The notes under the pieces are model-generated. The model saw only the letters and a list, made by a program, of their open reading frames with translations. It ran no database searches and had not been told where the DNA came from. Source: an uncultured Clostridium sp. (GTDB lineage: Bacteria; Bacillota; Clostridia; TANB77; CAG-508). Taken from it: a stretch of DNA of 64,000 nt. The translations under genes were made by a program, and so were the position numbers. How positions within the stretch are numbered: the first letter of the stretch is position 1; every line of letters starts with the position of its first letter. Positions 5,586 to 40,802 of this stretch are shown one piece after another. The stretch spans positions 11,902-75,901 of the forward strand of contig CANOWW010000006.1 of NCBI GenBank assembly GCA_947571115.1. Reading direction: 5' to 3'.

Positions 5586-7853
5586 TTACCAAGTAAATGT
5601 TTTTGTTCCTTCAAAATAAGAAATCATTTGATCCACCCATTCTTTCGAAGGGACATTATTTCCAAACCCTTGTGTTAAATCAATAATCATATATTCATCT
5701 TGATATAAAGTTCCACCCGATGGCGTCACTTGAAATGATCTGATAATCCAAGAACCATCTTTTGGCGTACCTGTTCTTATAACACCACTGACTCTCGTCC
5801 AATTTGGATAATTTCCATTATTCCATGAAAACACATAATTCATATCTGCGCCATCTCCTATAAACATCTCAAATCGACAATCGTTAGCAGAAACATTTCC
5901 TCCTACTGTTTTCATCATCCTTGAACCATAATACGTATGATTTGCTGTTGGTTTATTAATTGTTTGTGACAACATAGCTGTATGGTTTCCTGTATTAAAC
6001 TGAATTCCATAAGAACCAGAAACTTTTTGTGCCGTCTGTCTTGTTATATTATTCATCGTCCACTTTGTACTTCCTTGCTCAAAACCTGAATCTGTAACAA
6101 TATTCGTTAAACTTACTCCTGAAGTTGGTTTCGTTTTAAAAATTTGACTTACTGCCCTACTATTCTGAGCTTCATCTTTCAATTGATAAGTAACTGTATA
6201 AATGTCATAACCATTCAATGTTGCTCCTACAGCATTATTTGATGAATTTTTCACTTGCAAATTTGTTACCGAAACATTTCCTAAATTATCTGAAATTTTA
6301 TTAACACTCTTCAAATAACTTTCATTAATGGTAGTGCCAACATTCACTTTTAATTCCGAAGAAGCCGTAATAGTTGGCGGCGTTTTATCAATCCAAATAT
6401 TAGTAGAACTTACTTCAGACACATTACCTACCTTATCAAAACATCTTATATAAACTGGTTGATTTCTCTCTGCAGAAAATGGTGTTGTAACAAATGAATT
6501 TGAAGCTGAATTTTGATAAGTTACCCAATTCACTTGATCATAACTATACTCATAATATGCTATTCCACTTTCTGAATCTGTTGAAGTTATTGTTAAAGAA
6601 AAATTCTGAGAAGTTGCATTTCCATTCGTTGGATTATTTATACTTGGTTTTACTGGTGGCGTTTTATCAATATTTTGCACTGTTACAGACGCTGCTGCAC
6701 TTCCTTGCTGACCTACCTCGTCTCTTAAAATGACAAATAATGTTCCATTATTAGAAAACTCATAACTATTTCCATCTCGCCAATTTAAACCATCTGTACT
6801 AACTTGCATGGTATATCCTTGTATATCAACATTAGCAATAACATTGACGATAACATTTTGATTTGTCCAGCCTTCCTCTGAATATTCAAAACGCAAATCA
6901 GAATTGGTAATATCTTTTACCTCTCCTAAAGTTATTACTTGGCATTCACTTACATTGCCTACCTTATCTTTTACCCATACATAATAAGTTTGTCCCTGCT
7001 TTTTTCCTGTTAGTGTTGTATCAAAAATTAGAGTTTCATTACAAGACTCAAAAATATTTGGTTTTTCTGAACTTTCTGTCACTGCAAAACCTACAATGCC
7101 TGATTCTTTATCTATTGCCTTTATTTTAATTTGATTCGTAGTTGCCGTTACTTCTGTTATCTGAGGTTTAGTTTTATCAATATTTTGAATGTTACTTGTT
7201 GCCATTGCTCTTATTTGTCCTGTCATTTTATGTTTTACTCTAGCATATATTGTTTCATTTTCTATGGATTGAATTGGACTTGAATAAACTGACCAATTTT
7301 TTCCATCTTTACTATATTGTAACACAAAATTAGTCAAATCTATTCCCTGTGTAATAGAAATCACTGTTTCAACATTCTCATTTGTCCACTCTGTTTCTGT
7401 TTGTATAAACTTTATATCTGCTCCTACTATTTCTACTTCATTTTCATTCTCTGTATAAATCCCTATATATTCTATTTTTCCTGTTTTGATATTACAATAA
7501 TAGATATTATTTGTATCATCAAATGTAACAATATAATTGCCTAGTTCCTCTTCATCCTGCACAACTCCAGCTTTCTTTCCACCACTACTTAATTTTTGAG
7601 CAATTACTTCTGACACATCTTCTATTTCATCTAACTCCAAGTCTCTCTCTACCAACAATTCAACTTGCACTAATTCTAACATCTCTTTTTCTGCAGCTTG
7701 CACATATTTATCCGTTGCCTTTACTGCTCTACTCATAATTCCATTACTTCCCGTAACCAAGCTCAAACTAACACCCGCCAAAATAAGCAAAACAATTATG
7801 GTAACAACTAATGAAACTAATGTAATACCTTTATCCTTAAAAATCTTCCTCAT
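5586..7853 (-). CDS. Large secreted protein with a prepilin-like N-terminus (KGITL + hydrophobic helix) and multiple Ig-like repeats
   Basis: N-terminus MRKIFKDKGITLVSLVVTIIVLLILAGVSLSLVTGSNG resembles a class III/prepilin signal, but without Glu at +5. The repeated domain boundaries NIDKTKPQI / NIDKTPPVKPS / IDKTPPTI are typical of bacterial Ig-like domains. It is a paralogue of 22203..23456 and 28108..29960. Confidence 0.6.
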   Translation of the reverse strand: MRKIFKDKGITLVSLVVTIIVLLILAGVSLSLVTGSNGIMSRAVKATDKYVQAAEKEMLELVQVELLVERDLELDEIEDVSEVIAQKLSSGGKKAGVVQDEEELGNYIVTFDDTNNIYYCNIKTGKIEYIGIYTENENEVEIVGADIKFIQTETEWTNENVETVISITQGIDLTNFVLQYSKDGKNWSVYSSPIQSIENETIYARVKHKMTGQIRAMATSNIQNIDKTKPQITEVTATTNQIKIKAIDKESGIVGFAVTESSEKPNIFESCNETLIFDTTLTGKKQGQTYYVWVKDKVGNVSECQVITLGEVKDITNSDLRFEYSEEGWTNQNVIVNVIANVDIQGYTMQVSTDGLNWRDGNSYEFSNNGTLFVILRDEVGQQGSAAASVTVQNIDKTPPVKPSINNPTNGNATSQNFSLTITSTDSESGIAYYEYSYDQVNWVTYQNSASNSFVTTPFSAERNQPVYIRCFDKVGNVSEVSSTNIWIDKTPPTITASSELKVNVGTTINESYLKSVNKISDNLGNVSVTNLQVKNSSNNAVGATLNGYDIYTVTYQLKDEAQNSRAVSQIFKTKPTSGVSLTNIVTDSGFEQGSTKWTMNNITRQTAQKVSGSYGIQFNTGNHTAMLSQTINKPTANHTYYGSRMMKTVGGNVSANDCRFEMFIGDGADMNYVFSWNNGNYPNWTRVSGVIRTGTPKDGSWIIRSFQVTPSGGTLYQDEYMIIDLTQGFGNNVPSKEWVDQMISYFEGTKTFTW

Positions 7854-8033
7854 TTGATTTCTCCTTTTAGTTTTATAATTCTATTTTAACATTTATTAAA
7901 ATAATAAGTCAACAAATTAGTTGTATGTTACACAAAATTTATACATTTGTTACACTTCTGTAATAAAACCAAATAGGCTGTAAAAAACTACTAATTTCTC
8001 AAAAAATCCCTAGGTAAAACCTGATGGTTACCT

Positions 8034-8088
8034 TAAAATAAAAAAAAAGCGAGCGAAATTTGGGGATGTTGCCCCAAATTTCTCACGC
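8034..8088 (-). terminator. Rho-independent terminator downstream of the Asn-rich membrane protein gene
   Basis: An 11-bp stem GAAATTTGGGG / CCCCAAATTTC with an ATGTT loop. It is followed on the minus strand by a U9 run (A-run at 8041-8048 on the plus strand). Confidence 0.7.
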
Positions 8089-8115: not shown

Positions 8116-8595
8116 TTAACTTCTCCAGCTTCTCCAACATGTGCCATTATCATTATTATTGTTTCCATTATTATTACCAGTGTTATTATTGCCGGAATTA
8201 TTGTTGCCTGTGTTATTGTTACCACTATTATTATTGCCAGTATTGTTATTTCCAGAATTATTATTTCCTGTATTATTATTTCCTGAATTGTTATTACCGT
8301 TATTATTATTACCACCATTATTATTTCCATTATTGTTGTTATTGCCACCACAATTGCAAGAACAATTCCATCTCAAACATCTACAAATTAAATAAGCAAC
8401 AATAAATGCCAATACTGTAAAAATCCACGCAAATGCTATATAAAGTATCGTTCCGCCTAAAGCCAATGCTGCAATGATTAAAAGAACAAATACAATTCCT
8501 GCTACTTTAAACGGGCAATGTAAAATCGTTTGTAAAACAGCAGCAACAATCACAACCAATACGGGAATTACAAAAGCAATTAATAAATCAGTCAT
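8116..8595 (-). CDS. Small polytopic membrane protein with a Cys-rich segment and an Asn-rich GNNN(S/T) tandem-repeat tail
   Basis: N-terminal transmembrane helices, then CRCLRWNCSCNCGG, then about ten copies of GNNNSGNNNT. These are encoded by a 24-nt tandem DNA repeat at about 8150-8330. The plus-strand ORFs 8139..8405 are artefacts of this low-complexity repeat. Confidence 0.5.
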   Translation of the reverse strand: MTDLLIAFVIPVLVVIVAAVLQTILHCPFKVAGIVFVLLIIAALALGGTILYIAFAWIFTVLAFIVAYLICRCLRWNCSCNCGGNNNNNGNNNGGNNNNGNNNSGNNNTGNNNSGNNNTGNNNSGNNNTGNNNSGNNNTGNNNGNNNNDNGTCWRSWRS

Positions 8596-8665: not shown

Positions 8666-9400
8666 TTAATAGTTTACTTCCACCAAATACAACCCCACTG
8701 CTGGAAGCGTTTTCCCTGCTCGTTTTCGGTCTTTACTTTTGATAATATCCGGAATTTCTTCTGGATCTATTTTCCCCATTCCTACATCCAATAAAGTTCC
8801 TGCAATAATTCTAACCATATTATACAAAAATCCACTTCCTGTCAGTTCAATCCAAATTCTCTCCTCTTTTTCTAATACTTCTGCTTCAAAAATCTTTCTG
8901 ATACTATTCTTGCTACTCGTTCCGCTCGCCTTAAACGCTGCAAAATCATGTTCTCCTTCAAAATATTTTGCCGCTTTCCTCATCTTTTCCACATCTAACT
9001 TCATCGGAAATTGATATTCTAATTCACGAAAAATTGCTGTCCCAGTACTCGAACAATTCATCACATAACGATATTTTTTAAAATGCGCACAATAACGACT
9101 ATGAAAACGTTCTTCCACTTCTTCCGCTTTTTTGATTCGGATACTTTTTTTCAACTTTGAATTAATAGCCATCGCAAATTTGTCAATCGGAATATGACAA
9201 TTGGTTCTAAAATTAGCCACTTGCCCCAAAGCATGCACTCCTGCATCTGTTCTGCCAGAACCAATTAGTTCAATTGTTTCTCCTGTAATACTTCCAATTG
9301 CTCTTTCAATTTCTCCTTGAATGTTCAACTTATTGGGCTGTTTCTGCCAACCATTAAAGTCTTTCCCGTGATATTCGATGGTTAATTTAATATTTCGCAT
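8666..9400 (-). CDS. truA: tRNA pseudouridine(38-40) synthase TruA
   Basis: MRNIKLTIEYHGKDFNGWQKQPN ... RTDAGVHALGQVANF. The catalytic Asp motif, domain order and 244-aa length fit TruA. Confidence 0.85.
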   Translation of the reverse strand: MRNIKLTIEYHGKDFNGWQKQPNKLNIQGEIERAIGSITGETIELIGSGRTDAGVHALGQVANFRTNCHIPIDKFAMAINSKLKKSIRIKKAEEVEERFHSRYCAHFKKYRYVMNCSSTGTAIFRELEYQFPMKLDVEKMRKAAKYFEGEHDFAAFKASGTSSKNSIRKIFEAEVLEKEERIWIELTGSGFLYNMVRIIAGTLLDVGMGKIDPEEIPDIIKSKDRKRAGKTLPAVGLYLVEVNY

Positions 9401-9408: not shown

Positions 9409-11031
9409 CTATGCAATTTTTTGAGATATATTTCGCATTTCACGCGCATTTTTCAACGATGTCTCTGTTATTTCTCCATTGGAAATACGCGCTATTTCAC
9501 GAATTGTCTGCTCCTCTGTTAACTGATTTACATGTGTTTTAGTAAAGTTCCCTTCATTGCTTTTGTAAATATAATAATTGAAATCACCTTTTGCCGCAAT
9601 TGTCGCCAAATGCGTAATGCAAATTACTTGATGATTTTGGGCAATTCTTTTCATTTTTTCACCAGTCGAATTTGCCGCAATTCCACTAATTCCAGTATCA
9701 ATTTCATCAAATACTAAAATCGGCGTTTGGTCAATATCAGCCAAAACTGTCTTTATCGCTAACATCACTCTTGACATTTCCCCACCAGATGCAATTTTTA
9801 TCAAAGATTTCTTCTCATCGCCTTTATTGGTAGAAATCAAAAATTCCACTTTATCCAAGCCATTGTTATTGAATTTATTTTCCTCTATTAATTTGACAGC
9901 CACCTCAAATTCCGCATTTTGCATTTCTAACTCTTTTAACTCTCTCGTAATTTCCCTCGATAATTCTTGCGCATATTTTAGACGAACTTCATGTAACTTT
10001 TTCGCCAAAATCAATAATTGACTCTCCAATCCAATTGCTTTTTCTTTTAATTCCGCAACATAACTTTCCAAGTTCGTAATCTCAAAAATTTCCTTTTCCA
10101 CTTGTGTTTTATATTGCAAAATTTGCTGAATGGAATTCCCATATTTTCTTTTCAAACTTTGAATGAAATCAAGCCTTTGTTCCACTCTATTTTGTTCCTC
10201 TTCATCAAAAGAAACTTCCTCTACAGACAAGTCCCTTGCTACTTCCTGAATTTCATAATAACTACTTTTTAACCTTGTTACAATATCTGCATAAACGCTA
10301 TTATATTGCTCAATTTTCTCTAAAGCCCTAATCGCATTATTTAAACCATCAATCGAATGATTATCAATTTCATTTTGTGCTTCTTGCAAATTACTTGCAA
10401 TTTTTTCAGCAGCCAGCATCATTTTTCTCTTTTCTTCTAATTCCTCTTCCTCATTTTCCTTCAAATCCGCTTCTTCAATTTCATGCAGTTGATAATTGAG
10501 CAAATCCAACTTTCGTTGTTTTTCCATATCATCCCCATAATTCAAACTAAGTTCTTTTTGAGTCGCGACATATTCATGATATAATTTTTCATACTCTTTT
10601 TTGATATCTCTTATTTCTAAATCCGCATATCCATCTAATAAATCAATGTGTTGGTTCAAATCTAAAATCGACTGATTGTCATTTTGCCCATGAATGTCAA
10701 TTACTTTTTTCATAAATTCTTTTAATTCATTCACAGTGACTAATCTACCATTTAATTTGCATACATTTTTCCCACTGCTATTGATTTCTCTTGAAACAAT
10801 AACATGGTCCTCAAAATCAGGCAAGTCCAAAGATAATTCGACAAAAGAATTTTTGGCTCCTGTTCGCATCATTTCTTTTGAAAAACGACCACCTGATAAT
10901 ATTTTTAATGCTCCAATAATCAGCGTTTTTCCAGCTCCTGTCTCACCAGTCAAAACATTAAAACCTTCTCCTAAATGAATATTTAAATCATCAATTATCC
11001 CTATATTTTTTATATGCAATAAAGTTATCAT
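9409..11031 (-). CDS. recN: DNA repair protein RecN
   Basis: N-terminal Walker A GETGAGKT. There is a long coiled-coil middle region. The C-terminal SMC signature and Walker B are present (LVFDEIDTGISG). Length is 540 aa. Confidence 0.85.
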   Translation of the reverse strand: MITLLHIKNIGIIDDLNIHLGEGFNVLTGETGAGKTLIIGALKILSGGRFSKEMMRTGAKNSFVELSLDLPDFEDHVIVSREINSSGKNVCKLNGRLVTVNELKEFMKKVIDIHGQNDNQSILDLNQHIDLLDGYADLEIRDIKKEYEKLYHEYVATQKELSLNYGDDMEKQRKLDLLNYQLHEIEEADLKENEEEELEEKRKMMLAAEKIASNLQEAQNEIDNHSIDGLNNAIRALEKIEQYNSVYADIVTRLKSSYYEIQEVARDLSVEEVSFDEEEQNRVEQRLDFIQSLKRKYGNSIQQILQYKTQVEKEIFEITNLESYVAELKEKAIGLESQLLILAKKLHEVRLKYAQELSREITRELKELEMQNAEFEVAVKLIEENKFNNNGLDKVEFLISTNKGDEKKSLIKIASGGEMSRVMLAIKTVLADIDQTPILVFDEIDTGISGIAANSTGEKMKRIAQNHQVICITHLATIAAKGDFNYYIYKSNEGNFTKTHVNQLTEEQTIREIARISNGEITETSLKNAREMRNISQKIA

Positions 11032-11124
11032 ACGCGCCTCCTATCCAAAAATATGTTCGATAATTGTATTATATCAGAATTTTCTTTTTTGTCAATACAT
11101 TTGTTCGTATTTTTATGAAATTTT

Positions 11125-12057
11125 TTAAAAAATCTCATAAAAATTTTTAAACGTATATCCTTGTTCTCTCAAATAGGCAATTACACTTGGAAGCGCTTCT
11201 GCTGTGTATGACTTATCACTCGCATCATGCATCAGCACAATAATGGCTCCATCTCCTTCCATGGTTTGAATTAAGCACTCCATTTGCGAATCCGTAGTTG
11301 TTCGCCCTTCTGCGTCTCCTGTCAAACAATTCCAATTGGTATAATTAATTCCATAATCACGCAGCAAACCTTTTGCCTCGCCTTTCACTCCATCGTACCT
11401 ACCGCCACTCGAACCACCCGGAAAACGAAACAAATGCGTATTATAATTTGGATTTTCCAAAGCCACACGAATCGCTTCTTCTGTTTTGGCATATTCCTCA
11501 AAAACCGTATCTTTAGAAGTATAAATTTGAGAATAATTATGAGAATAACCGTGATTGGCAATATAATGCCCTTCGTCATATTCTCTTTTTAGCAAATCTG
11601 GATTTAGGTCAACACGACTACCCAACACAAAAAAAGTGGCTGGCACATTTTCTTGTTTCAAAATATCCAATACTCGTGGTGTTATATTTTTAGAAGGTCC
11701 GTCGTCAAACGTCAAATACGCCACTTTTTCATCTGAATAATAAATATTTGTAATTTCTTCCTGCGCATTTGGATTTTCCTTCGGCACAAACTTTGATTTA
11801 ATTTGTTCCATATCATGCTGCGCAATTTGAATATGTTTGATTTCTTGAGGTTTTGTGGCAGCTACTGAACTCCCTTGCTTCGGATGATTATCATTCTTTT
11901 TTTTCATTTTTACTGAAACAACAATACTAATAATAATCACAACCACGCAACACAAAATAATCATTCCACAAATGATTGCTTTTTTTCGCAAATGAGCTCT
12001 TTTATTTAATTCATCTATGACTTCCATGTTTTCATTTTCGTTTTCATCATACAACAT
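11125..12057 (-). CDS. Polysaccharide deacetylase family protein (NodB domain) with an N-terminal membrane anchor
   Basis: NodB motifs YLTFDDGP and HGYSH. A single N-terminal transmembrane helix. Confidence 0.75.
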   Translation of the reverse strand: MLYDENENENMEVIDELNKRAHLRKKAIICGMIILCCVVVIIISIVVSVKMKKKNDNHPKQGSSVAATKPQEIKHIQIAQHDMEQIKSKFVPKENPNAQEEITNIYYSDEKVAYLTFDDGPSKNITPRVLDILKQENVPATFFVLGSRVDLNPDLLKREYDEGHYIANHGYSHNYSQIYTSKDTVFEEYAKTEEAIRVALENPNYNTHLFRFPGGSSGGRYDGVKGEAKGLLRDYGINYTNWNCLTGDAEGRTTTDSQMECLIQTMEGDGAIIVLMHDASDKSYTAEALPSVIAYLREQGYTFKNFYEIF

Positions 12058-12190
12058 TTTACTTCCCTCTATTCTACTAAAAACTCTATTTTAATATATC
12101 ATAAAAAGAAATGATTTTCAACCATTATTCTTTCGTTCTTTTTTCATATTTCCGAAAAAGCAACATATTCTTAAAAAAAGGAGGTCAGAA

Positions 12191-12976
12191 ATGAAAGATC
12201 GAATTATCAGATATGGTTTCATTTGCTTGATACTAATTGTCAGCATTATTCAGTTTTCCATTGCATCACAAGCCAATCAAGAACTGAGCAATCAAACTTT
12301 AGCTTGGGGATTTAGGCGCGGCGAAAATCATGCACAAGCCACTTTGGATATAGAAAGTCTAAAAGTGTTAGAAAAATTCGACGGAATTGCTATGGGAAAT
12401 CCTGATAAAAATTACATTTATCTTACTTTTGACGCTGGCTATGAAGCTGGTTATACAGAAGAAATTCTGAAAATTCTAAAAGAAAATAACATTACTGCAA
12501 CTTTTTTCATCACCGCACATTACGTCAACACTGCAACTGATTTGGTAAAGCAAATGATCCAAAATGGAAATACCGTTGGAAATCACACTGTAAATCATGC
12601 TTGTTTGCCCAATTTAAAAGATGACGAAATCAAAGAAGAAATTATGAAATTACACAACAGCATTTATGAAATTACAGGCTATGAAATGACATACTTTAGA
12701 CCACCCAAAGGTGAATTTAGTGAACGCACTGCCAGCCTTGTTCAGTCACTTGGCTATACCAGTGTTCTATGGTCAAATGCTTATGACGATTGGGATAACT
12801 CAAAGCAAGGTAGAAGTGACTATGGAAAAAAGAAAGTTTTAGATAATTTGCACAATGGTGCTGTCATCCTTTTGCATAGCACATCCAAAGACAATGTCGC
12901 TATGCTTGATAGCATGATAAAAGAAGCCAAAACTATGGGCTATGAATTTAAAAGTCTAGATGACTTTGAAAAATAA
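12191..12976 (+). CDS. pdaA: Polysaccharide deacetylase, PdaA-like (spore cortex delta-lactam de-N-acetylase family)
   Basis: NodB motifs YLTFDAGYEAG and HTVNH. Signal peptide present. Length 261 aa, similar to B. subtilis PdaA. The gene symbol is tentative. Confidence 0.6.
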   Translation: MKDRIIRYGFICLILIVSIIQFSIASQANQELSNQTLAWGFRRGENHAQATLDIESLKVLEKFDGIAMGNPDKNYIYLTFDAGYEAGYTEEILKILKENNITATFFITAHYVNTATDLVKQMIQNGNTVGNHTVNHACLPNLKDDEIKEEIMKLHNSIYEITGYEMTYFRPPKGEFSERTASLVQSLGYTSVLWSNAYDDWDNSKQGRSDYGKKKVLDNLHNGAVILLHSTSKDNVAMLDSMIKEAKTMGYEFKSLDDFEK

Positions 12977-17076: not shown

Positions 17077-18222
17077 TTATTTATACAAAATCATTCGGAA
17101 ACCCCAATACGCTTCTGACGTATTCTCCTTATAACCCGCATGACTACTTGCTGGGCGATCCAAATTCGCACTTCCTCCTCGAATGACTCGATACGTAACC
17201 GTCTCTGAAACCGGTACTTCATTGACCGCATTTTTGTTTTTATTTTTGGAAGTATTGGTTACCGGTGTCGTTTCCTTAAAAATTTCTGTAGTCCATTCTC
17301 TCACATTACCCGCCAAATCGCAAATATTATTTTTGATGTCATCTTCTGTTTCTCCTGTATTTCTCAACTCCCCTGAATAATTTCCTTGACTAATATCGGT
17401 TGAATAATTTTCTTCTGTTTCATCAATCCAAGCCAAAACTGTGTCCCACGCAGCGCTGTTCATAAGCGCTGTTTGGCATTCTTGATAATCAAAAGCAGAC
17501 CCCATATCACTCGCCATTTGCGCTGCATCTGAATACGAAATATTCGTCCATGGCATTTTTCCTTTCATACTAGCTGCCATTCTTGCTCCATTTCGGTCAA
17601 AACTCGAAGCCTCATATCGCGCCATATAAAACCCATAATTTTGTGCGACACTATTTCCCAAAGTAGAAATATTATCTTCATATTTCGTATTAGATAACGT
17701 ATTTCTCGTCAATTTTCCACTTGGCACTGGCACCCATACAAATTGATTTCCAAACTTGTCTTCAATGACATAACCAGTTTCCGCTTCCCCTTCGATATGT
17801 GAAAAACCTTCTGGAATATATGGCTCCGAACTAGACGCTTCTCGAATATTTTTCACTTCAATAGCAAGTGAAGTCGAAACTCCATTATTGCCCTTTGCTT
17901 CAAACGTATATTTTCCATTTTTTGTTACCTCATATTCTGCATAATCCCCACGCTTTTGCGAACCGTCTGGCAATACAATCGATTGAATTCCCTCTACATC
18001 TTCTGTGGTTGCATTTGCTGTAATCGTCACTTTACTTTGCCCCTCTTTTTCGGAACTCAGTTCCAATTGCAATTGTGGTTCAATATCTGTGGAAGCCACC
18101 ACATTATCATTATTGTTTGCTTTTCTACTTCCCTTCACAGCTAGCACAACACCAACACTAGCCACAAATACAACCATCACAATCAGCACAATAATTATCA
18201 CTGGCGAAACTTTATAATACAT
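17077..18222 (-). CDS. Formylglycine-generating enzyme (SUMF1/FGE) domain protein with an N-terminal membrane anchor and an Ig-like linker
   Basis: The C-terminal FGE-sulfatase signature is present (RVIRGGSANLDRPASSHAGYKENTSEAYWGFRMIL). An N-terminal transmembrane helix is present. Confidence 0.6.
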   Translation of the reverse strand: MYYKVSPVIIIVLIVMVVFVASVGVVLAVKGSRKANNNDNVVASTDIEPQLQLELSSEKEGQSKVTITANATTEDVEGIQSIVLPDGSQKRGDYAEYEVTKNGKYTFEAKGNNGVSTSLAIEVKNIREASSSEPYIPEGFSHIEGEAETGYVIEDKFGNQFVWVPVPSGKLTRNTLSNTKYEDNISTLGNSVAQNYGFYMARYEASSFDRNGARMAASMKGKMPWTNISYSDAAQMASDMGSAFDYQECQTALMNSAAWDTVLAWIDETEENYSTDISQGNYSGELRNTGETEDDIKNNICDLAGNVREWTTEIFKETTPVTNTSKNKNKNAVNEVPVSETVTYRVIRGGSANLDRPASSHAGYKENTSEAYWGFRMILYK

Positions 18223-22202: not shown

Positions 22203-23456
22203 TTAATTACTCAACTCCCAAGCCGTTCCATTCCAGTTCATTTTCGCATTGGCAGGCAGACAAACAAGAGGACGGATACCGTTAAACACTTGATTAGCCC
22301 CAGCATAACCCACACATCCAGCAAAATTTATTGCCCTCACTGCATTAGAATTAACTGTATACTCAGATGATAACCAATATGCTCCTGCATTAGTTGTATT
22401 TGTTATAATATAAGGCATTTCTGTATTGTTAACAAAATAGCTTTCTGAACTTAAATCAGCCGAATGTAACGTTCCATATTTTGAATTATAACTTTCTACA
22501 AACTGTTGAAGAGTGGGCCCTCCTATAGCTGTTGCTTCACTAAATCCTTCTGCATATTTACTCCAATTCGATGTATTTCTCAACCAATTTACTAATGTAT
22601 TTTGACTATCTCCCTGTACTTTATATATTTCATTTGTACTAATTCCACTTATCGTTGTCATTCCACTAATTGGTACATAATCACTTGAAATAATATATAC
22701 GTTCTCTCCGTCATTCAGAAATATTTGCCAATCATTTACTCCATTTGCAGAATAATTTACTACATCTCCATAATTAGTTACTGAAATTGTTGCTACTGCC
22801 AAGTTTTCCCAAACAGCATACAATGTCACACTTTGGCTCCCCATTGTAAAACTTCCTGAACTTGTATATTCTGGCGTTGTTGCAGTGCTACTTGTTGCCC
22901 AGCCTAAGAAATTTGCTCCTTTTTTCGTTGGTTTTGTCGTAAAATCAATGCTCACGCTTTCTCCTGCTGCATATTTTTTCGTAGCTGGCACGCCTGTTCC
23001 GCCGTTTGCATCATACGAAACTGTGTATTTTGTCACAATTTGACTGCCACTTAACTCGCCATCAATTGTCACACTTCCGTCTGGATTTAAAGTTCCAATC
23101 TCTAAGCCTTCATAATTTAATTTTCCACTGCTGTCACATGAAACTTCTGCCCCGTTTGAAAGTTCTACACCTTTTTCCAATTCTGCTTTGACGTACTCAT
23201 TCGCACTTGCAAAATTGTTGTCTTTCATGTAGTAATCCATTTGCAATTCTGCAATTTTTAATTCAATTTCTTCTTTGATTTTCGCCATATTGTTCACATC
23301 CACTGCCTTTTGGGCTCGTCCTAAAATCCCGTTACTGCCTGCTGCTAGACTAAGGCTCACACCTGCTAAAATTAATAGTACGATAATTGTAATAACTAAC
23401 GCAATTAATGTAATACCTTTGTTGCTTTTTTTGTAAATAACATTTTCTTTCAACAT
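22203..23456 (-). CDS. Prepilin-like N-terminus (KGITL + hydrophobic) surface protein with a Flg_new (Listeria-Bacteroides) repeat
   Basis: N-terminus MLKENVIYKKSNKGITLIALVITIIVLLILAGVSLSLAAGSNGILGRAQKAVD. The region KKGANFLGWATSS...SVTLYAVWE fits the GW...LYA.W pattern of the Flg_new repeat. Confidence 0.6.
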   Translation of the reverse strand: MLKENVIYKKSNKGITLIALVITIIVLLILAGVSLSLAAGSNGILGRAQKAVDVNNMAKIKEEIELKIAELQMDYYMKDNNFASANEYVKAELEKGVELSNGAEVSCDSSGKLNYEGLEIGTLNPDGSVTIDGELSGSQIVTKYTVSYDANGGTGVPATKKYAAGESVSIDFTTKPTKKGANFLGWATSSTATTPEYTSSGSFTMGSQSVTLYAVWENLAVATISVTNYGDVVNYSANGVNDWQIFLNDGENVYIISSDYVPISGMTTISGISTNEIYKVQGDSQNTLVNWLRNTSNWSKYAEGFSEATAIGGPTLQQFVESYNSKYGTLHSADLSSESYFVNNTEMPYIITNTTNAGAYWLSSEYTVNSNAVRAINFAGCVGYAGANQVFNGIRPLVCLPANAKMNWNGTAWELSN

Positions 23457-23544
23457 CTTTTGTTTCCCCTCTTTCTTTTTTTATATAAGCTTAGTTTACA
23501 TCAAAAAAGAAAAAAATATAAGGTGTCAAATAAAATGATGTCAT

Positions 23545-23580
23545 AATAAAATTTAGGAAGGATAAAATGTCCTTCCTTAT
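23545..23580 (-). terminator. Terminator downstream of spoIVA
   Basis: An 8-bp stem AGGAAGGA / TCCTTCCT. The minus-strand RNA follows with a U-rich AAAUUUUAUU tract. Confidence 0.5.
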
Positions 23581-28107: not shown

Positions 28108-29960
28108 TTAATTTATTTGTTCTACTAATACTCGATAAATATCAAGATTACCTGTAGAACTAGAATTACTCACCTTAAATTCTATTGCCCCCATAAATTG
28201 CGTTAATGTCATATTAATATAGTATGAGTAATTTCCTTTATAAAAGTAAGTCGTTCCAGCATTATTATACACTTCATAGTTGCCGTAAATCTAGCCCATT
28301 GCCAAACCATCTTACTCTGTATTCTCCTGCAGGCAATCCACAATACGGACCCCAAACATTTTGTCCCGGTATTAACCTAACAAACCCTTCAGAGAAATAT
28401 TCAGAATTTGCTCCATACATCATACCGCCTTTTTGGCATAAAGCTTACTTGCACTAATAAATTAGTGATTGAAATATTATTCTTTGTTTCAATACCAGCT
28501 CCGTTTTTACAATAAACTGTATAAATGATATTACTAAAATCAGTTCCTATTCCTGCCCCTCCATCTATCACTCCAGTATACCAATCTTCTGTATTTGCAT
28601 TAAAACTCGTATCCATACTCGTCCCATTGTTTCGCATCCAATTGATATCTCGATTTCCTGGTGCATATTTTTTCACACTAATTCCAGACACATCATCTGA
28701 AATCGTAGCATTTACCGTTTTTTGATATTCTTTCGTCATTGTATTCGTTTGTGCCAAATTTATCGTTGGCGCACTTGCATCCTTTTTCACTGTCAGTACT
28801 TTATTATCAGAGCGATTGCCCACATTATCTAAACTATATACCGTTATCGTCGTTTGTCCTTGATTAGAGACCATCAGAGTTTCACCATTTGCAATCTCTG
28901 TTTCCGATTTCGTTGTTGCTCCTGTCAACGCATACATTGTTTTTTGTACACCACTTTCACTATCCACACCTTCCGTAACTTTTATCGTAATATCACTCGT
29001 GTACCACGAATTTTCTCCTACTGTTCCCGCCGTAATTGCCAGCTCTGGACTACTTGGTTTCGTCTTATCAATATTACTAACTGTCGCGCTAGCTGCTGAA
29101 CCTCCCTGTTGTCCTGTACTGTCTCGCAAACAAACAAATAACGTTCCATTATTTTCAAATGTATACGAATTTCCATCTTCCCAATTCATCTTATCTGTAC
29201 TAATTTGCATTGTGTAGCCTGACATATTAATTTTTGGTTTTGCTGTCACTGTTACGTTTTGACTTGTCCAATCTTTAGTTGAATATTCAAATTCAATATT
29301 GGTCTCTGTCAGTTCTTGTACGAGTGTTGTTTTCACTTCTTTCGCGCTGCTTACATTACCATTCGCATCTTTCACCCAAATGTAATACATCGTATCATTC
29401 GTCAAATTTTCAATTGTGTATGTAAAATTTTTCTGTGCTGGACTAACTGAATTCCATGTCGTTGGCTCCACATTTGTCGCAGAATAATTCCAACCTGCCA
29501 CTCCTGCTAAAATATCTTTTGCCACAAACGTGATTGAATTTGTAGTCGAAGTTGCAGAAATACTTGGCGCCTTGTTGTCTTTTATGGTTCCGTCTGCTAA
29601 AACACCGCCTTCAATCGTCACTTCGCCATTGTCTGCAATGGCAATCACAGATGTATTTCCTTGTGAGTCAGTAAAATACAGCGTTCTGTCGTCGTCGCAC
29701 GCAAACATAACATTGCCAATTCGCCAAATTCCGTCTTCATTTTCTCCGCACTTTTTCTTAACATACTCTGATAAGGTTAGCCCGTTTTCCTTCCACATAA
29801 TAATCCATCATAATTTCTACTAATTTCAATTGCAATTCTTCCTCTGTTTGCGCCTGTTTAACGATGTCAACCGCTTTTGTCGCCTTCCCTAAAATCCCAT
29901 TGCTGCCGTGCAACCAGATTTAGGCTCACACCTGCAAAAATTAATAATACAATAATGGTC
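28108..29960 (-). pseudogene. Prepilin-like surface protein gene (third paralogue), 3' portion. Its 5' end is separated by a 14-kb element and it carries four single-G frameshifts.
   Basis: Residues FEYSTKDWTSQNVTVTAK...NWEDGNSYTFENNGTLFVCLRDSTGQQGGSAASATVSNIDKTKP parallel those of 5586..7853. Upstream remnants are TTRTIIVLLIFAGVSLNLVA, then GSNGILGKATKAVD..., then MDYYVEGK, then GLTLSEYVKKK. Frame changes occur at about 29907, 29783, 28423 and 28283, each at CC-G on the plus strand. The coding frames continue without a break down to ...VLVEQIN-stop at 28108. Confidence 0.7.
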
Positions 29961-30115
29961 CTAGTTGTCTATTAATTACAATTTTTAAACAACTTTTTTA
30001 TTTTCCAAATTATCCACACTTTTTATATTTAATTCTCTAAATTTATAATAAATCGTTATTTCTTTATCTTGAGAAATCTCAATTCGGTCAACTAATTGAA
30101 CTAATGCTGTTCTAT

Positions 30116-31641
30116 CTATATTTTCATCTTTACAAATTCTTTAACTATTTTTTTTAAGTCAACTTGTTTTTCTTCTGTATTACTATTTTTCAACTGTTCA
30201 ATCTGTTTTTCCATATTTTCTCTCATCTCAAGATTTTTCTTATAAATTCTTTCAAAATCAATTTCTGTTATTTTTCCTGAAATTTTGTCTTCATAAATTC
30301 TGTCTATTTTTTCATTTAAGCCCTTGACCTTTCTTTCCAATATTTTAATCTCATTTTGAATTGAATTTCTTCTTTTTTCAAATTGATTTTTTGTTTTTTT
30401 TGCTAAACTTTCAAACTTTTCTTCTTTTAAATATTCTCTGCATCTTGCTTTCACAGTTTCAAGTACAATTTCTGTTACTTTTTCCAAATTGTTCGAATGT
30501 GGCGTACACAATTTCAAACTTGGTACAGAAGCATAAGTGTTGCAACGCAAATAAGCAATTTCTTTGTTTTCTTTCTTATGAACTGCAATGCTCATTTGTT
30601 TCCCACATTCTTGGCAATAAATCAAGCCATGCAACAACCACTCATACTTTCTGCGTCTTGTTCTAGTCCTACTTTTAATTAATTGTTGCACAATTTCAAA
30701 TGTTCTTCGTCAATGATTGGCTCATGCATTCCTTTTCTAACAATCCAATCGTCTACTGGTATCATCAGAATCTTTTTACTTTTATAGCTTACTTTCTTGA
30801 GAGTTCCATTTTTTACCGAACCTAAATATGTAACATTTTGCAAAATTCTTTTGACTGTGTTTCTATTCCAACCTCGCTTAATTTCTGACTTATTCCTTGT
30901 ATGTGTATTTCCCACTACATCACTTGGCAACCTTGCTTTGTCTTCAGTCATAATTTTTGCAATTTCTGTTGGTGTTTTTCCTGATTTTGCTAGGTTAAAA
31001 ATCTTTTTTACGACTGGTGCAATTTCTTCATCAATTACATAATGATTTTTGTCGAGTGGGTCTTTTTTGTAGCCATAAGTCGCATAAGTTACCATTACTT
31101 TCCCCTCATTTGCCCTAGTTTTCTTACCATTTTTGATTTTTTTCGAACAATCTCTTAAATACCATTCATTAAAGAATGCCTTAAACTGCAACATATCTTC
31201 TGATGTCTCAATTTCGCCTGTGTCGATGTCGTCTGCAATTGCTATAAATCTCACACCTTTTTCAACAAAATATTCCTCCAGATAATACTCAACTTTTGAT
31301 GAATTCCTGCCAAATCTCGACAAATCTTTGACAATTACCATATTGATTTTGCCTGCTTCGATGTCTTTTATCATTCGCTTAAAACCTGGCCTATCGAAAT
31401 TTGCTCCTGAATAGCCATCATCTGTGTATGTATCGTAAATTTTGATTTTGTTGTCCTTGCAAAATTTCTTTAAGTAACTTTTTTGTGTACTAATGCTTCC
31501 ACTTTCTCGCTCTTGTTCGCTTTCTTCGCTTACATCTGCAAAATTATGATTTTTATATTCTATTTTTTCGTTTGAAAGTCTTGGATAAATTCCTGCTATA
31601 TATTTTTCAGGATTACTTATTGTTATCATCTTACCTCCCAT
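30116..31641 (-). CDS. Large serine recombinase (resolvase/invertase catalytic domain, recombinase domain and zinc-ribbon/coiled-coil), frameshifted near 30690
   Basis: ORF 30679..31641 carries the catalytic domain (YPRLSNE..., DGYSGANFDRPGFKRMIKDIEAGKINMVIVKDLSRFGRN). ORF 30116..30691 carries the zinc ribbon (WLLHGLIYCQECGKQ...LRCNTY) and a coiled-coil. The join reads ...IIDEE(H/T)FEIVQQLIKSR and needs a 1-nt indel in a short homopolymer. Confidence 0.8.
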
Positions 31642-31953
31642 CCTAACAATAAGTTTCCTCCTATCAATAATTAAGGCTATTATATTTCATTTTTTCTTAA
31701 AAGTCTAGTAAATCTCATCAAATTTTTTCATGCAATATTGAACAAATATTTTCTCCAATATTTGCTCCAAATTTTCCGCATTTTTACTACTCTTAAAAAC
31801 TTCTTTTACTATATATTCTTTTTTCATAGGCGTTCCTTTCTTATCTATTAATAGAAAACTTATTATTAGCTTTTTTCCTTGTTGCTATTTTAAGTCTCTA
31901 TTTTAAATAAGAAAAGAAAGCAAAATGAAAGGCAAAATTTTTAAAGTTATTTT

Positions 31954-33366
31954 TTAAAATCCAATTTTTCGCTTATTTTCAGCTTGATATTTACTTAAAT
32001 TTCTCTGCTTTAACATTTCTATATCCTCCAAAACAATCTCATTTGTATTTTTCAAATCATTATTTTTTGTTACTCGACTTGCTTGTATTATTTTCAGTTG
32101 CTCTGCAATATTTCTAATTTCTCTTGCATTTCCAAAATTTTTAACTTTTCTAATATCCAAAAAGTATTGAGTTAAGACCTGTTTACATTTTTCATTCACA
32201 AACAAATTATCTTCTTCTAAATACTTTTCAAATATTGCAAAAAGTTCATCATTTGTATAATTTTCAAAATCTATCACAAAATTTACTCTACTTTTCAAAC
32301 CTGAATTCATTTCAATAAATTCCTTCATCTCATTTGTATAACCTGCGAAAATGACGCAAAGTTTATCTTTTCGATTTTCCATTTCACGAATTAAAATATC
32401 AATCACATTATGTCCGTAATCTCTTGAATATTTATCTGAATAAAGTGAATATGCTTCGTCAATAAACAAGATTCCACCTGTTGCTTTTTCAATTATCTGC
32501 ATCGTCTTTTCTTCGGTTTCTCCAATATGTCTGCCAACCAAATCTGCTCTTGTCACTTCCACAAAAATTTTTTCATTACTTAATATTTTCATTTCAGATA
32601 ATATTTCTCCAAACAACCTTGCAACTGTCGTTTTTCCTGTTCCTGGATTGCCAAGAAAAAACATATGCAACATTGGAATCTTATTTTTAAATTTTTGCAA
32701 TTTCAAATAAGCAATAATCTCATTTAACGTTGTTTTTACTTTTGATAAACCAACTAATTTTTGCAATTCTTCCATTGCATTTTTTGTTTTCTCTTCTTTT
32801 AAAAATTCTGCAAAATAACTGTCTTTCACAATGTGGCTTTTCAATTTATTGGCTTCGCTACATGCTATTAAAACTGCTTTTTTAGCCTCTTGTATGTTTT
32901 GCTTAGAGAAAAACTCTAAAATATCTGAATTTTTCTCTAACTCAAAACCGTTTTCATAAATCATATTAAAAAGTATTGCCTTGTTCATTTCTTCCAAAGT
33001 TCCATTGTTTAAATCTATTATCCAATAAAAATCACTGTATCTCTTGTCTATTGGTAAAAATTTTTCTTTCGCAGTTTTGACAATATAGACATCTTCTCTA
33101 AAAGTCGTTGTAAATCTCTCGTCATTTTTAATTTCTATATAAATATCACTCAATTTACTTTTCAAAATATCTTCAATTAAACTTGCAACTTTCTCTAAAT
33201 AAATTTGCGTATAATCATTGATTACCACATGATAATTCTTGATTGAAAAATCCTTTTCAACCGTTAAATCAACATATTTTAAATAATGATATAATTCTCT
33301 TTTGGCTTTTTCATGAATTGCTAAAGCACGAATTTTCTTTTTGATTGCTCTATTTGGGTTCATCAT
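31954..33366 (-). CDS. SpoVK/CbbX-type AAA+ ATPase
   Basis: Walker A GNPGTGKTTVARLFGEIL, Walker B ILFIDEAYSL and arginine finger region. N-terminal helical domain. Length 470 aa. Confidence 0.7.
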   Translation of the reverse strand: MMNPNRAIKKKIRALAIHEKAKRELYHYLKYVDLTVEKDFSIKNYHVVINDYTQIYLEKVASLIEDILKSKLSDIYIEIKNDERFTTTFREDVYIVKTAKEKFLPIDKRYSDFYWIIDLNNGTLEEMNKAILFNMIYENGFELEKNSDILEFFSKQNIQEAKKAVLIACSEANKLKSHIVKDSYFAEFLKEEKTKNAMEELQKLVGLSKVKTTLNEIIAYLKLQKFKNKIPMLHMFFLGNPGTGKTTVARLFGEILSEMKILSNEKIFVEVTRADLVGRHIGETEEKTMQIIEKATGGILFIDEAYSLYSDKYSRDYGHNVIDILIREMENRKDKLCVIFAGYTNEMKEFIEMNSGLKSRVNFVIDFENYTNDELFAIFEKYLEEDNLFVNEKCKQVLTQYFLDIRKVKNFGNAREIRNIAEQLKIIQASRVTKNNDLKNTNEIVLEDIEMLKQRNLSKYQAENKRKIGF

Positions 33367-33653
33367 TAATCTTTATCCAACATTCTTAATATTCTAAAAC
33401 AATTTTTATAGCCTTGTTTGTATAAAAACATACTTTCTATATACATTAATTCATAAAAGCAATCAAAAAACTCGTCTTCCAATTTATCTTTATCCTTCTT
33501 ATCTTTTATCAAATCATTTAGAAATTTATGTAATTTTTCTAGTAAATCTCTATATTTCTCATTTTTCTTTTGTACTATTCTACTATATTCATTTTTGCTT
33601 TCCTGTAGAAAATAATCAATATTTTCCTGAAATTCATCTCTTAATTTTGTCAT
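33366..33653 (-). CDS. Small hypothetical protein (95 aa), translationally coupled to the AAA+ ATPase
   Basis: Its stop overlaps the downstream AAA+ start at 33366. Alpha-helical and charged. Confidence 0.4.
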   Translation of the reverse strand: MTKLRDEFQENIDYFLQESKNEYSRIVQKKNEKYRDLLEKLHKFLNDLIKDKKDKDKLEDEFFDCFYELMYIESMFLYKQGYKNCFRILRMLDKD

Positions 33654-33801
33654 AAAAATCCTCTCCTTTTTAAAAAATTTTCAAATTTTAGTTGAAAGTA
33701 GAGGACTACATATGCTATAATATTTATGTAGTTCTACTTTCAGTAGGACTGCCTTTGGAAGCGGTGTCGGAAAGGTTTGGCTACCAAGACACCTCTTCTT
33801 T

Positions 33802-34026
33802 TTATTTGTCCAATTTTCTAATTCCTCTACGAATACCTTCCATTTTTGAAATATTTTCCTTTTTGCAATAATTTTCCAATATCTCAAAAGTATCTTTATC
33901 CATTCTTACTGCAAGTCTAATATTCTTAGGGTTATCTGTTGGACGTCCTAACTTTTTGTTAGCCATTTTTCCTCCCTTCTTTTTGGCTGCCATAAATATA
34001 TTAACATTTTGGTCACCAAAAGTCAA
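33802..34026 (-). CDS. Ribbon-helix-helix (CopG-like) DNA-binding protein
   Basis: The likely real start is MANKKLGRPTDNPKNIRLAVRMDKDTFEILENYCKKENISKMEGIRRGIRKL, at about 33946. It shows the typical RHH beta-strand plus two helices. Confidence 0.45.
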   Translation of the reverse strand: MTFGDQNVNIFMAAKKKGGKMANKKLGRPTDNPKNIRLAVRMDKDTFEILENYCKKENISKMEGIRRGIRKLDK

Positions 34027-34126
34027 GGATTTTTTTAATTTTTTCTAAAAGTAGGATAAATTTCAAATCACTGGGTGATTTCTTACCATTTTTACTCCTA
34101 TTTTTAAATTTGTAAACATAAGCAAA

Positions 34127-34630
34127 TTAGCTTAAATTTAATAATTCTTTTAATGTATTCTCTGTAATTTTATGGTTTTCCTGTCGATAAAAATTTTTAA
34201 TCTTTTTAGATTGCATTTCTGAAATTTTAATATTTTCATTAACTATTAATTGATAAACTATGTTTTGTTCTTTTTTTCCTAAAAATGAAAGATGTTGTGC
34301 AACTTTTAAAGAAATTTTATGACTATCTAATATGTTTTGCAATTCCTGAATTAAATAATTAAATCTTAAATGTCTTTGAATGTTTCCCATTGAGGTATGT
34401 TGTTCCTTTACCATTTTATCCATAATTTCTTTATACTTTAACCCCATTTTCTTTAAAGCCAGCATTTTTAATTTATATGCTCTTGCTCTTTCTGTTGGTT
34501 TAATCTCTTTTCTTCTAAAACTATCTAAATATTGTTGCATTTTCTCATCATTTCGTATTCTTTCAAATTCTTCCATAGTCCTATTGCGAACTTCCTGACA
34601 GATTTTTTCTTCATTTTTTAAATTGTTCAT
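34127..34630 (-). CDS. ParB-like HTH DNA-binding protein (KorB/ParB C-terminal-type, no N-terminal ParB/Srx domain)
   Basis: The region MGNIQRHLRFNYLIQELQNILDSHKISLKVAQHLSFL matches the ParB helix-turn-helix and its following region. Confidence 0.45.
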   Translation of the reverse strand: MNNLKNEEKICQEVRNRTMEEFERIRNDEKMQQYLDSFRRKEIKPTERARAYKLKMLALKKMGLKYKEIMDKMVKEQHTSMGNIQRHLRFNYLIQELQNILDSHKISLKVAQHLSFLGKKEQNIVYQLIVNENIKISEMQSKKIKNFYRQENHKITENTLKELLNLS

Positions 34631-34839
34631 ATTTATTTTCCTCCTAGTATAATAAATTTGAAGTAATTTACTTCATATATTTATTTTAGAACATATTTTG
34701 TTTTAAAAAAAGAAAGCAAAAAGAAAGGCAAAAAACAATAACTTGTAATAATTTGATTATAAATATACTAAAATCCTATAAATTTACCAAGTGAACTTTT
34801 AAACTCTAATCTAAGTCTTTGATTTGCAATTTAACTCTT

Positions 34840-34930
34840 TCTAAAACGCTTGCGTTTTATGTGTTTAAAGTCCAAACGTGAGTTGGACTTATCCTGCCTT
34901 TAGGGCTCACCAAAGGTAACTTGGTGAATT
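34840..34930. other. Cluster of three short hairpins in a non-coding gap between the ParB-like gene and the helicase gene (candidate parS/oriT-like or small RNA)
   Basis: The three hairpins are AAACGC / GCGTTT, AGTCCAA-ACGTGAG-TTGGACT, and TCACCAA-AGGTAAC-TTGGTGA. Confidence 0.25.
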
Positions 34931-35205
34931 TATATCAAAAATCACACATTTGATGAAATTCTACTAAGAACAAAATTTTTCTTATAAACTTCTGCCATAA
35001 TTTTATTGTGTTAGGTAGTTGAATACAAGACAAAAAGATTTGAAATACTTATAAAATACTGTTAGAAAAAATCTTGTTAACAAAAATTTGAAAAATACCA
35101 ATCCTCCAAAATAGAGTGGACCCATGAATAATTATAAGCCTTCAGTTGAAGAAATTATATTTAGAGAATTGATATATTATTAAAATAAAAGAGTAGCGAA
35201 GATAG

Positions 35206-36216: not shown

Positions 36217-36582
36217 TTAATTACTTTTGAATTCATTTTTTATCTCCTCTATTGTGTGCCAATTACTTAAATCAATATCATTCTCAATTAATCTTTCGGC
36301 TATTTCAACTTTTTTCTTATGCTTTGCTACATGGAATTCAGAATATTTTTTATGTTTCTCTAACAAATCATTGCAATTATTTAAGAAACCATTTATGTAT
36401 AAATCAGTTTCTAAAGTATTTTCAATCTCAATCAATTTAATATTTTTCTCGGTACATAGCAACTTTAAATTACTAAACCTAGATGATGGTTCTTGCCTAT
36501 CTGATAATAATTTATCATTATCACTTACTACTATCACCTTTTTGTTTAATAGACTTGCTAACTGAATATACGGTTCAAACAT
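36217..36582 (-). CDS. TOPRIM-domain fragment of an OLD-family nuclease (GajA C-terminal-like)
   Basis: NVAGVMFEPYIQLASLLNKKVIVVSDNDKLL aligns with the GajA region LLEVGGTYFNHYVCTLNDLGITHIIKTDNDLK. The first TOPRIM strand with its Glu motif is missing. The frame differs from the upstream ATPase ORF. Confidence 0.5.
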   Translation of the reverse strand: MFEPYIQLASLLNKKVIVVSDNDKLLSDRQEPSSRFSNLKLLCTEKNIKLIEIENTLETDLYINGFLNNCNDLLEKHKKYSEFHVAKHKKKVEIAERLIENDIDLSNWHTIEEIKNEFKSN

Positions 36583-36626
36583 TACACCCGCAACATTTAT
36601 AATTGTCCAATTATAATTATTTTTAC

Positions 36627-40012: not shown

Positions 40013-40013
40013 T

Positions 40014-40787: not shown

Positions 40788-40802
40788 AATTCCTCCTATA
40801 TT

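Follow-up and report, generated by a model that had tools for sequence, protein, structure and literature searches.

Probable orphan modular type IV pilins with a Glu5-less class III signal in an uncultured gut Clostridium, and related pilus operons in its relatives

We analysed a 64,000-nucleotide stretch of DNA from an uncultured Clostridium sp. (contig CANOWW010000006.1, positions 11,902 to 75,901; hereafter the window, whose numbering is used throughout) that encodes a family of large proteins sharing an unusual Gly-Ile-Thr-Leu (GITL) N-terminus. We propose that two of these proteins, p1 and p2, and formerly a third, p3, are probably orphan modular type IV pilins, and that a type IVa-like pilus whose genes lie elsewhere in the genome displays them. 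This pilus is best described as a previously unannotated, Glu5-less subtype that is specific to a clade of uncultured gut Clostridia. The basis of the proposal is homology of the pilin module, a two-way association with pilus operons in relatives, and the residue rules of the N-terminal motif. The features of the two intact genes that carry the argument are these.

5586..7853, minus strand: p1, predicted orphan modular pilin of 755 amino acids (aa), from the open reading frame (ORF) listing, domain scans and orthologues
7827..7853, minus strand: p1 leader M1-G9 (MRKIFKDKG), with a predicted prepilin-peptidase cut after Gly9, from the motif scan
7758..7826, minus strand: p1 alpha1N, 23 hydrophobic residues (ITLVSLVVTIIVLLILAGVSLSL) with Ile at +1 and Ser at +5, in register with the N-termini of MshA, PilA and geopilin
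7449..7853, minus strand: p1 pilin module, residues 1-135, from hmmsearch with a small-pilin profile (94 bits, residues 4-135)
22203..23456, minus strand: p2, predicted orphan modular pilin of 417 aa, in which the pilin module is followed by a Flg_new repeat and, at the C-terminus, a DUF6273-like domain, from the ORF listing and Pfam
23064..23456, minus strand: p2 pilin module, residues 1-131, from hmmsearch with the small-pilin profile (141 bits, residues 8-131)
22812..23027, minus strand: p2 Listeria-Bacteroides (Flg_new) repeat, residues 144-215 (PF09479, E 2e-13, 50.7 bits)

In a six-frame motif scan of the window, G-I-T-L N-termini turn up three times and no more, each time on the minus strand. 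The p1 protein starts MRKIFKDKG/ITLVSLVVTIIVLLILAGVSLSL (the slash marks the predicted cut) and p2 starts ...KKSNKG/ITLIALVITIIVLLILAGVSLSL, with leader M1-G14, alpha1N I15-L37 and Ala at +5; the p3 leader ends ...NEPAG and is followed by Ile at +1 and Ala at +5. An earlier note on this DNA had described the shared N-terminus as a short leader followed by G/ITL(I/V)(A/S)LV(I/V)TIIVLLILAGV, with Ile at +1 and no Glu at +5, and all three genes bear this description out. Each has the short hydrophilic leader ending in Gly or Ala and the ~21-residue hydrophobic alpha1N of a class III signal; what they lack of such a signal is Glu at +5 and an N_methyl signature above the curated cutoff. The N_methyl model PF07963 falls on the right residues and scores 13.2 bits for p1 and 17.0 bits for p2, below its cutoff of 21.2 bits, and TIGR02532 gives no match to either protein at E<=0.1. 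Searches of PDB sequences with p1 and p2 yielded no useful match. A family profile run against all PDB sequences gave weak matches, yet the top four were all type IV pilins, aligned in register. In MshA (E 0.016), the profile segment kGITLiALVITIIVLLILA is aligned with QGFTLIELVVVIIILGILA, so that Ile stands in place of Phe1 and Ala in place of Glu5. From this in-register alignment, the motif is therefore the class III signal in a form where Ile has taken the place of Phe1, and Ala or Ser that of Glu5.

The same rules hold across the family. Position statistics (-2 to +5, and leader length) were taken from 345 family members selected with HMMER. The residue at -1 is Gly in 339 and Ala in 6, in obedience to the Gly/Ala rule contained in the class III signal definition (PMC8179133), +1 is Ile in 340 and Val in 5, Lys or Arg occupies -2 in 76%, and the median leader length is 7 aa. 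A search with p2 residues 1-133 returned 6134 matches, mostly of 130-190 aa, with the same N-terminus and 17 invariant N-terminal columns. An exhaustive hmmsearch of 1.84 billion cluster representatives gave 32,750 matches at E<=1e-3 and 22,768 at E<=1e-10; we take the latter threshold for a family size of ~22,800, counted as clusters at 50% identity. The class, which is unannotated, runs to tens of thousands of proteins, and its members come from uncultured gut Clostridia. No paper came up when the literature was searched for the motif string, and searches on Glu5-less pilins or atypical prepilin peptidases turned up tip pilins only.

Homology to pilins extends beyond the signal. The small-pilin profile was built without p2 and without P0001, the closest homologue of p2, and the whole of it covers the N-terminal segments of both p1 and p2. 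Both proteins join this full pilin module to extra, non-pilus domains, as modular pilins do: Flg_new, DUF6273-like, OmpL47-type barrel and NTTRR-F1-like domains are found among them. In p1, the pilin module is followed by beta-sandwich repeats and a C-terminal jelly-roll-like (NTTRR-F1-like) module. The part common to p1 and p2 is confined to the N-terminal ~90 residues (49% identity), and p1 and p3 additionally have the central beta-sandwich repeats in common. The repeats had been described as Ig-like or Flg_new. The Flg_new assignment in p2 is secure, but the Ig-like label for p1 and p3 depends on an OmpL47-type barrel domain barely over its cutoff and on sub-threshold matches to Big, HYR and CHB_HEX_C. 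The DNA coding for alpha1N is only ~69% identical among the paralogues, and p1 orthologues are intact as well; this argues that the identity of the alpha1N peptides has been kept by purifying selection, not by recent duplication, gene conversion or chance. The C-termini of p1 (...YFEGTKTFTW) and p2 (...NGTAWELSN) are without an LPXTG-like sorting signal of the kind expected for sortase anchoring.

The machinery that would display these proteins is encoded next to small members of the family in related genomes. We scanned one genome per species by motif and kept 80 loci from 66 metagenome-assembled genomes (MAGs) of uncultured gut Clostridia, with human, rabbit, mouse and ruminant hosts, and including Clostridium sp. 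CAG:440 and a 1.8 Mb circular chromosome. A complete operon of the same gene order, with 1-5 tandem small pilin genes, occurs in 14 of the 80 loci. In two lineages the order reads PilMN-PilO-x-pilin-PilD-like-2 minor pilins-PilB-PilT-PilC. Here PilMN stands for a PilM-PilN fusion, PilO for a PilO-like protein and x for a small membrane protein; the pilin is of the GITL kind, the PilD-like protein has a PF06750 domain, and the minor pilins are two small proteins. In a reverse test, metagenome contigs were scanned with a PilD-like profile. Sixty-four loci had enough upstream sequence, and a strict GITL pilin start lies <=1.5 kb upstream of the PilD-like gene in 52 of them; near variants such as NGVTLIALAV... 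and KGVSLIALII... account for 7 more (59/64 in total). The only canonical pilin (KGFSIIEL) in this test belongs to the most distant locus, L175, whose peptidase has a canonical GGGD. A genetic link to PilB, PilC and PilD is thus present for the family in relatives, in both directions, and absent from the window itself.

The earlier note had offered archaeal-like or competence-pseudopilin-like adhesins as candidate identities. Its broader idea, a non-canonical class III signal fused to adhesin-like modules and served by distant machinery, holds up on the in-register alignment, the operon-embedded small homologues and the Gly/Ala rule at -1; the archaeal or ComG type does not, since the machine is type IVa-like, with PilB, a PilT above the TIGR01420 cutoff, PilC, PilMN and PilO. 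The lack of Glu5 does recall archaeal pilins, and a ComEC gene lies a few genes from the operon in loci L005-L007. Against these points, the operon ATPase scores 409 bits with the type IV-A PilB model versus 206 bits with ComGA, PilB and PilC fit type IVa/GspE-F models far better than ComGA/ComGB or FlaI/BasE, PilT, PilMN and PilO are all present, and the PilD-like protein has a bacterial A24_N domain. We therefore disfavour ComG-type pseudopilins and archaeal-type pilins and give them almost no weight.

Several side observations concern the operon pilins themselves. The minor pilins have KG/YTGID or KG/VTLISL N-termini, and one minor pilin in L001 (11314..11754) and one in L007 (11372..11854) are acidic at +5 (KG/YTGID and KG/YVITD). 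Acidity at +5 in minor but not in presumed major pilins is the inverse of the usual pattern, where only the tip pilin is without Glu5. Locus L036 carries five tandem small GITL pilin genes in one operon (9995..12582), and L063 and L073 carry three each; this resembles major-pilin multiplicity or antigenic variation.

Away from the operons, the pilin module is joined to a broad and modular cargo. The 80 genome loci hold 116 GITL genes of bimodal length. The small genes (26/116) encode 131-173 aa, and 22 of these 26 come from 10 operon-bearing loci, while the large genes (78/116) encode 251-1256 aa. Up to 7 GITL genes occur within <=60 kb of one MAG, compared with 3 in this 64 kb, and 66 of the 80 loci are orphan, being without an operon. 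Domains of the large members include BspA-type leucine-rich repeats (LRR; LRR_5), Flg_new, GLUG, DUF285, FGE-sulfatase-like, alkaline phosphatase, fn3, Big_2 and lectin, and many large members are without any Pfam domain. By these domain assignments, the pilin module would be fused to enzymes too, not to adhesins alone. Of the large GITL proteins from loci L012-L091, two contain the complete alkaline phosphatase domain (E 8e-57), and an FGE-sulfatase-like domain is present in nine. The body of p1 has 119 homologues in our data, of which 91 carry GIT[LI] N-termini without Glu5 and 2 carry a canonical KGFTLIEL. These two, P0348 and P0374, are beta-sandwich body homologues with Glu5 and a PF07963 match. 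The same cargo therefore occurs on both kinds of signal, and the N-termini appear to be interchangeable, because a canonical KGFTLIEL is found on homologues of the p1 body.

A number of results weigh against our proposal. No PilB, PilC, PilD or ComG gene is present in the 64 kb window, as the earlier note had stated and as both a Pfam scan of all ORFs >=110 aa and a tblastn scan with a complete pilus operon agree. Residue +5 in the 345 family members is Ala in 291, Ser in 51, Val in 2, Thr in 1 and Glu in 0. Glu5 is regarded as essential for assembly of bacterial type IV filaments, and as a rule the apical subunit alone lacks it (PMC10191384, PMC10628169). Proteins of up to 1256 aa, or enzymes, are unusual cargo for a pilus. 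The AlphaFold2 model of p2 residues 1-145 (53 homologues; predicted local distance difference test (pLDDT) 82) has a long helix (13-77), a helix at 85-95 and a sheet of four strands (104-131), and the order of these elements in the model is that expected of a minimal pilin, but a Foldseek search of the PDB with the modelled pilin module found no significant match, so that assignment of the pilin fold rests on sequence homology.

The PilD-like protein raises a further objection. Its Zn-finger/methylase N-domain is clear (PF06750, E 3e-29), with four invariant Cys, and its family has ~4500 homologues, the top 120 of which carry PF06750 only; the peptidase domain PF01478 is not matched even at E<=1. 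Prepilin peptidases are said in the literature to have two universally conserved catalytic Asp. We compared the PilD-like proteins of L001 (10486..11301) and L007 (10545..11351) with 66 distinct sequences from L015-L175. The first catalytic Asp (GID[KR]E) is kept in 64 of the 66, L133 having Glu there. At the second (GxGD) position, Asp is found only in L153 (GEGD), L162 and the outgroup L175, Glu occurs in L049 and L015, and core-clade proteins have Gly, Ser or Asn. Core-clade proteins share an invariant Glu 14 residues downstream of the GxGD position (FTGE) and an invariant Asp upstream (LILDT). We considered the FTGE Glu as the positional equivalent of the GxGD Asp and rejected this, because the Glu lies 14 residues downstream once the sequences are aligned with L153, L175 and PilD. 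For PilD we used a reference sequence of Pseudomonas aeruginosa; the motif conclusions are drawn from L175 and L153, both of them sequences in the data with the same motifs. An AlphaFold2 model of the PilD-like protein has a pLDDT of 70.6 and falls below 50 in the critical region 175-206. A Foldseek search of the PDB with this model gave no significant match, nor did a PDB sequence search with the peptidase profile give a useful one. With no PF01478 match and the second Asp replaced, leader cleavage by the core-clade PilD-like protein is uncertain. In L153 a canonical-type enzyme adjoins a Glu5-less pilin, and cleavage of a Glu5-less signal is therefore plausible in that lineage.

The same findings feed the main alternative, in which the N-terminus is a pilin-derived but uncleaved signal anchor that tethers the ectodomains to the cytoplasmic membrane, with only the small operon members forming a filament. 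A PilD-like protein without the canonical second Asp and without PF01478, a family in which no member has Glu5, the prevalence of orphan loci, and a cargo of enzymes and very long proteins would all suit a simple anchor. Such an anchor would, however, need neither ~17 invariant residues maintained under selection at 69% DNA identity, nor a strict Gly or Ala at -1, nor conservation of the whole ~135-aa module including its sheet, and it would not account for canonical GFTLIE N-termini on the same protein bodies. We consider this explanation unlikely.

Under our preferred reading, that of orphan modular pilins, we propose the following mechanism. The pilin module of ~135 residues would consist of a basic leader ending in Gly, alpha1N (20-23 residues, ITL[IV][AS]LV[IV]TIIVLLILAGV), the amphipathic remainder of a ~65-residue helix and a small 4-stranded sheet. 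The protein would be inserted into the membrane via alpha1N, and its leader would be removed at Gly/Ile by the PilD-like protein of the pilus operon, which we infer to be present in the source genome. A retractile type IVa-like machine (PilB, PilC, PilMN and PilO, with PilT for retraction) could then extract the module and co-polymerise it with small major pilins bearing the same alpha1N. The C-terminal modules would be shown on the filament, at its tip or along its shaft, as adhesins or enzymes. The common alpha1N would thus serve as an 'address' through which one machine could be used by many unlinked genes, and the fact that it hardly varies among paralogues or among species is in keeping with a shared element for recognition and packing.

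A variant of this model replaces the filament by a bindosome- or pseudopilus-like display, in which short cell-wall-spanning structures present or release class III-signal proteins as a general sortase-independent route. The many genes per genome, the ~22,800 clusters and the diversity of modules, including alkaline phosphatase, are in keeping with it. An archaeal precedent exists in class III-signal sugar-binding proteins, which are reported to be assembled by the Bas system (PMC3047682). The operon, however, encodes PilT, an ATPase for retraction, and has 1-5 tandem genes for small major pilins, as is typical of true type IVa pili, and we regard this variant, too, as improbable. We raise, as a tentative conjecture and one we would not at present favour, that the clade has turned a type IVa machine into a general surface display system, with dozens of unlinked genes per genome sharing the Glu5-less alpha1N, and with a PilD-like protein that has abandoned the two-Asp site, either by moving the carboxylate to the Glu 14 residues downstream or by losing proteolysis. 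If true, the system would parallel the archaeal bindosome in bacteria and serve as a natural test of the need for Glu5 and for the GxGD Asp, with adhesins, LRR proteins, phosphatases and sulfatase-maturase-like domains as its cargo.

Modular type IV pilins are known from Streptococcus sanguinis PilB (vWA) and PilC (lectin) and from CofB of enterotoxigenic Escherichia coli (Raynaud et al. 2021, PMC8179133). Like them, the GITL proteins join an N-terminal pilin module to bulky adhesive modules in diverse architectures served by one machine; unlike them, they have Ile at +1 and Ala or Ser at +5 in place of Phe and Glu, most of their genes lie apart from those of the machine, and each genome has far more members of the family. 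The published modular-pilin census relied on the IPR012902 signature (PMC8179133), and GITL proteins fall below its Pfam and NCBIfam equivalents, PF07963 and TIGR02532. Orphan pilin genes outside biosynthetic operons are well documented (PMC3244431).

The canonical monoderm type IVa set is pilA-pilD-pilB-pilC-pilMNO-pilT, with G/FTLIE pilins. The GITL operons share the machine of canonical type IVa pili of Clostridia and other monoderms (PilB, PilT, PilC, PilM/N, PilO and a PilD-like protein with a Zn-finger N-domain) and the short leaders ending in Gly. They differ in that none of their pilins has Glu5 (one minor pilin has Asp5), in an almost invariant alpha1N, and in a PilD-like C-terminal domain that PF01478 misses and whose GxGD Asp is replaced in most lineages. 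Absence of Glu5 is shared with tip pilins (GspK/PilK and S. sanguinis PilA), but there only a single apical subunit is without it, whereas here the presumed major pilins and all modular members are. Archaeal class III-signal surface proteins, such as those of the Sulfolobus bindosome, and archaeal pilins likewise comprise many non-pilus-like proteins with a class III signal and no Glu5; the GITL family differs in its bacterial hosts, its bacterial PilD N-domain with PilMNO and PilT, and a K-G/I-T-L context that follows the bacterial pattern. ComG pseudopilins resemble the family as small monoderm pilin-like proteins, with a signal of the G/F-T-L-x-E type; the GITL machine, unlike theirs, is not of ComGA/GB type, has PilT and PilMNO, and serves pilins without Glu5.

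Because the PF07963/IPR012902 and TIGR02532 signatures miss this class at curated cutoffs, ~20,000-30,000 gut-Clostridia clusters stay 'hypothetical', and a likely major share of the surface adhesins and enzymes of these organisms is missing from pilus and modular-pilin censuses. The GITL system offers a direct comparative handle on two questions that the literature poses, namely what Glu5 and the N-terminal charge do in assembly and by what mechanism prepilin peptidases catalyse their reaction. For work on the microbiome, the variable modules at the C-termini are candidate binders of the host or of glycans.

The two intact genes in the window have the flanks expected of separate transcription units.

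7883..7912, minus strand: promoter-like site 5' of p1 (TTGACT-18-TAAAAT with TG), a consensus match only
23515..23544, minus strand: promoter-like site 5' of p2, a consensus match only

The p1 promoter-like site comes after a terminator-like hairpin (8055..8082), which suggests that p1 is its own transcription unit, and a hairpin of the same kind (23555..23577), just past spoIVA, precedes the p2 site; both genes are thus predicted to be transcribed alone. Directly upstream of p1, at 8116..8595 on the minus strand, lies a gene whose product is a multi-pass membrane protein carrying a long (NNNSGNNNTG)n tail rich in Asn. No family matches this product, and it is no homologue of x, the small membrane protein encoded in the pilus operons. 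We had suspected, from matching sizes, that the ORFs 9409..11031, 8666..9400 and 8116..8595 were PilMN, PilO and x; Pfam rejected this, identifying an SMC-like ATPase, TruA and the Asn-rich membrane protein instead.

The third copy has been disrupted. The earlier note had counted three full paralogues, of which p1 and p2 are indeed intact at the coordinates it gave, but p3 is split by a 14 kb insert and frameshifted. Its parts and the insert are as follows.

43998..44069, minus strand: p3 5' fragment of 24 codons, MKKEKIGGRGNEPAG/ITLAALVIT (MKKEKIGGRGNEPAGITLAALVIT), from the six-frame motif scan
28401..29959, minus strand: p3 remainder, comprising what is left of alpha1N (TIIVLLIFAGVSLNL), remnants of the helix in two further frames and a 465-aa ORF with OmpL47-type beta-barrel repeats
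29960..43997, no strand assigned: ~14 kb low-GC integrative element splitting p3, from GC content, junctions, inverted repeat and gene content
30679..31641 and 30116..30691, in the element: large serine recombinase, split into two ORFs
36627..37592 and 36217..36582, in the element: GajA (Gabija-like), split
35206..36216, in the element: short GajB-like gene
37928..38977, in the element: PDC-S02/YhcG nuclease

The 24 codons of the 5' fragment (44069..43998) are continued 14 kb away by TIIVLLIFAGVSLNL, from 29959 downwards. Past this junction there are at least two frame changes within the first ~300 nucleotides, and the longest ORF stops at 28401, not at 28108. The intervening segment is an integrative element inserted in the alpha1N-coding part of p3, because it has low GC (25-29%, against ~34% elsewhere in the window), ends in an imperfect terminal inverted repeat (GTAGTTGTCTA / TAGACAACTAG), and encodes a serine recombinase along with other genes. 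Further genes of the element specify an AAA ATPase, a ParB-HTH protein, a hydrolase and a GNAT protein, and as a whole it looks like a small, partly decayed defence island. This element, which lies outside the pilin system, explains the fragment at 43998..44070 that the earlier note had listed with the third paralogue. Among the examined loci of relatives, no other KGITL gene interrupted by an element was found. The uvrA gene, at 44590..47473, is broken into two ORFs that overlap (44590..45735 and 45581..47473). The split state of uvrA, the recombinase, gajA and p3 suggests either indel errors of a low-coverage assembly or real gene decay, and p3 is accordingly a pseudogene or a gene affected by assembly indels.

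A broken p3 and the absence of machinery within 64 kb could also mean that all three genes are decaying relics, becoming pseudogenes in a genome that has lost the machine. This is highly unlikely in our view: p1 and p2 are intact and have promoter- and terminator-like flanks, orthologues of p1 from other samples are intact at 96, 96 and 89% identity, and some of the frameshifts may be assembly errors, since uvrA, the recombinase and gajA are split as well.

The remaining window genes identified by Pfam include genes for housekeeping and sporulation (GPR, SpoIVA, TruA, Lgt, an AddA-like helicase, UvrA, LeuRS, DnaJ and DnaK), a sortase locus and the genes of the element. The sortase gene (48398..49039) lies within 47550..49733 on the minus strand, between genes for two unannotated membrane or secreted proteins of 278 and 234 aa, and the organism therefore also has a conventional surface-anchoring route. 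The ORF 17077..18222 encodes an FGE-sulfatase-like domain but has an ordinary transmembrane anchor.

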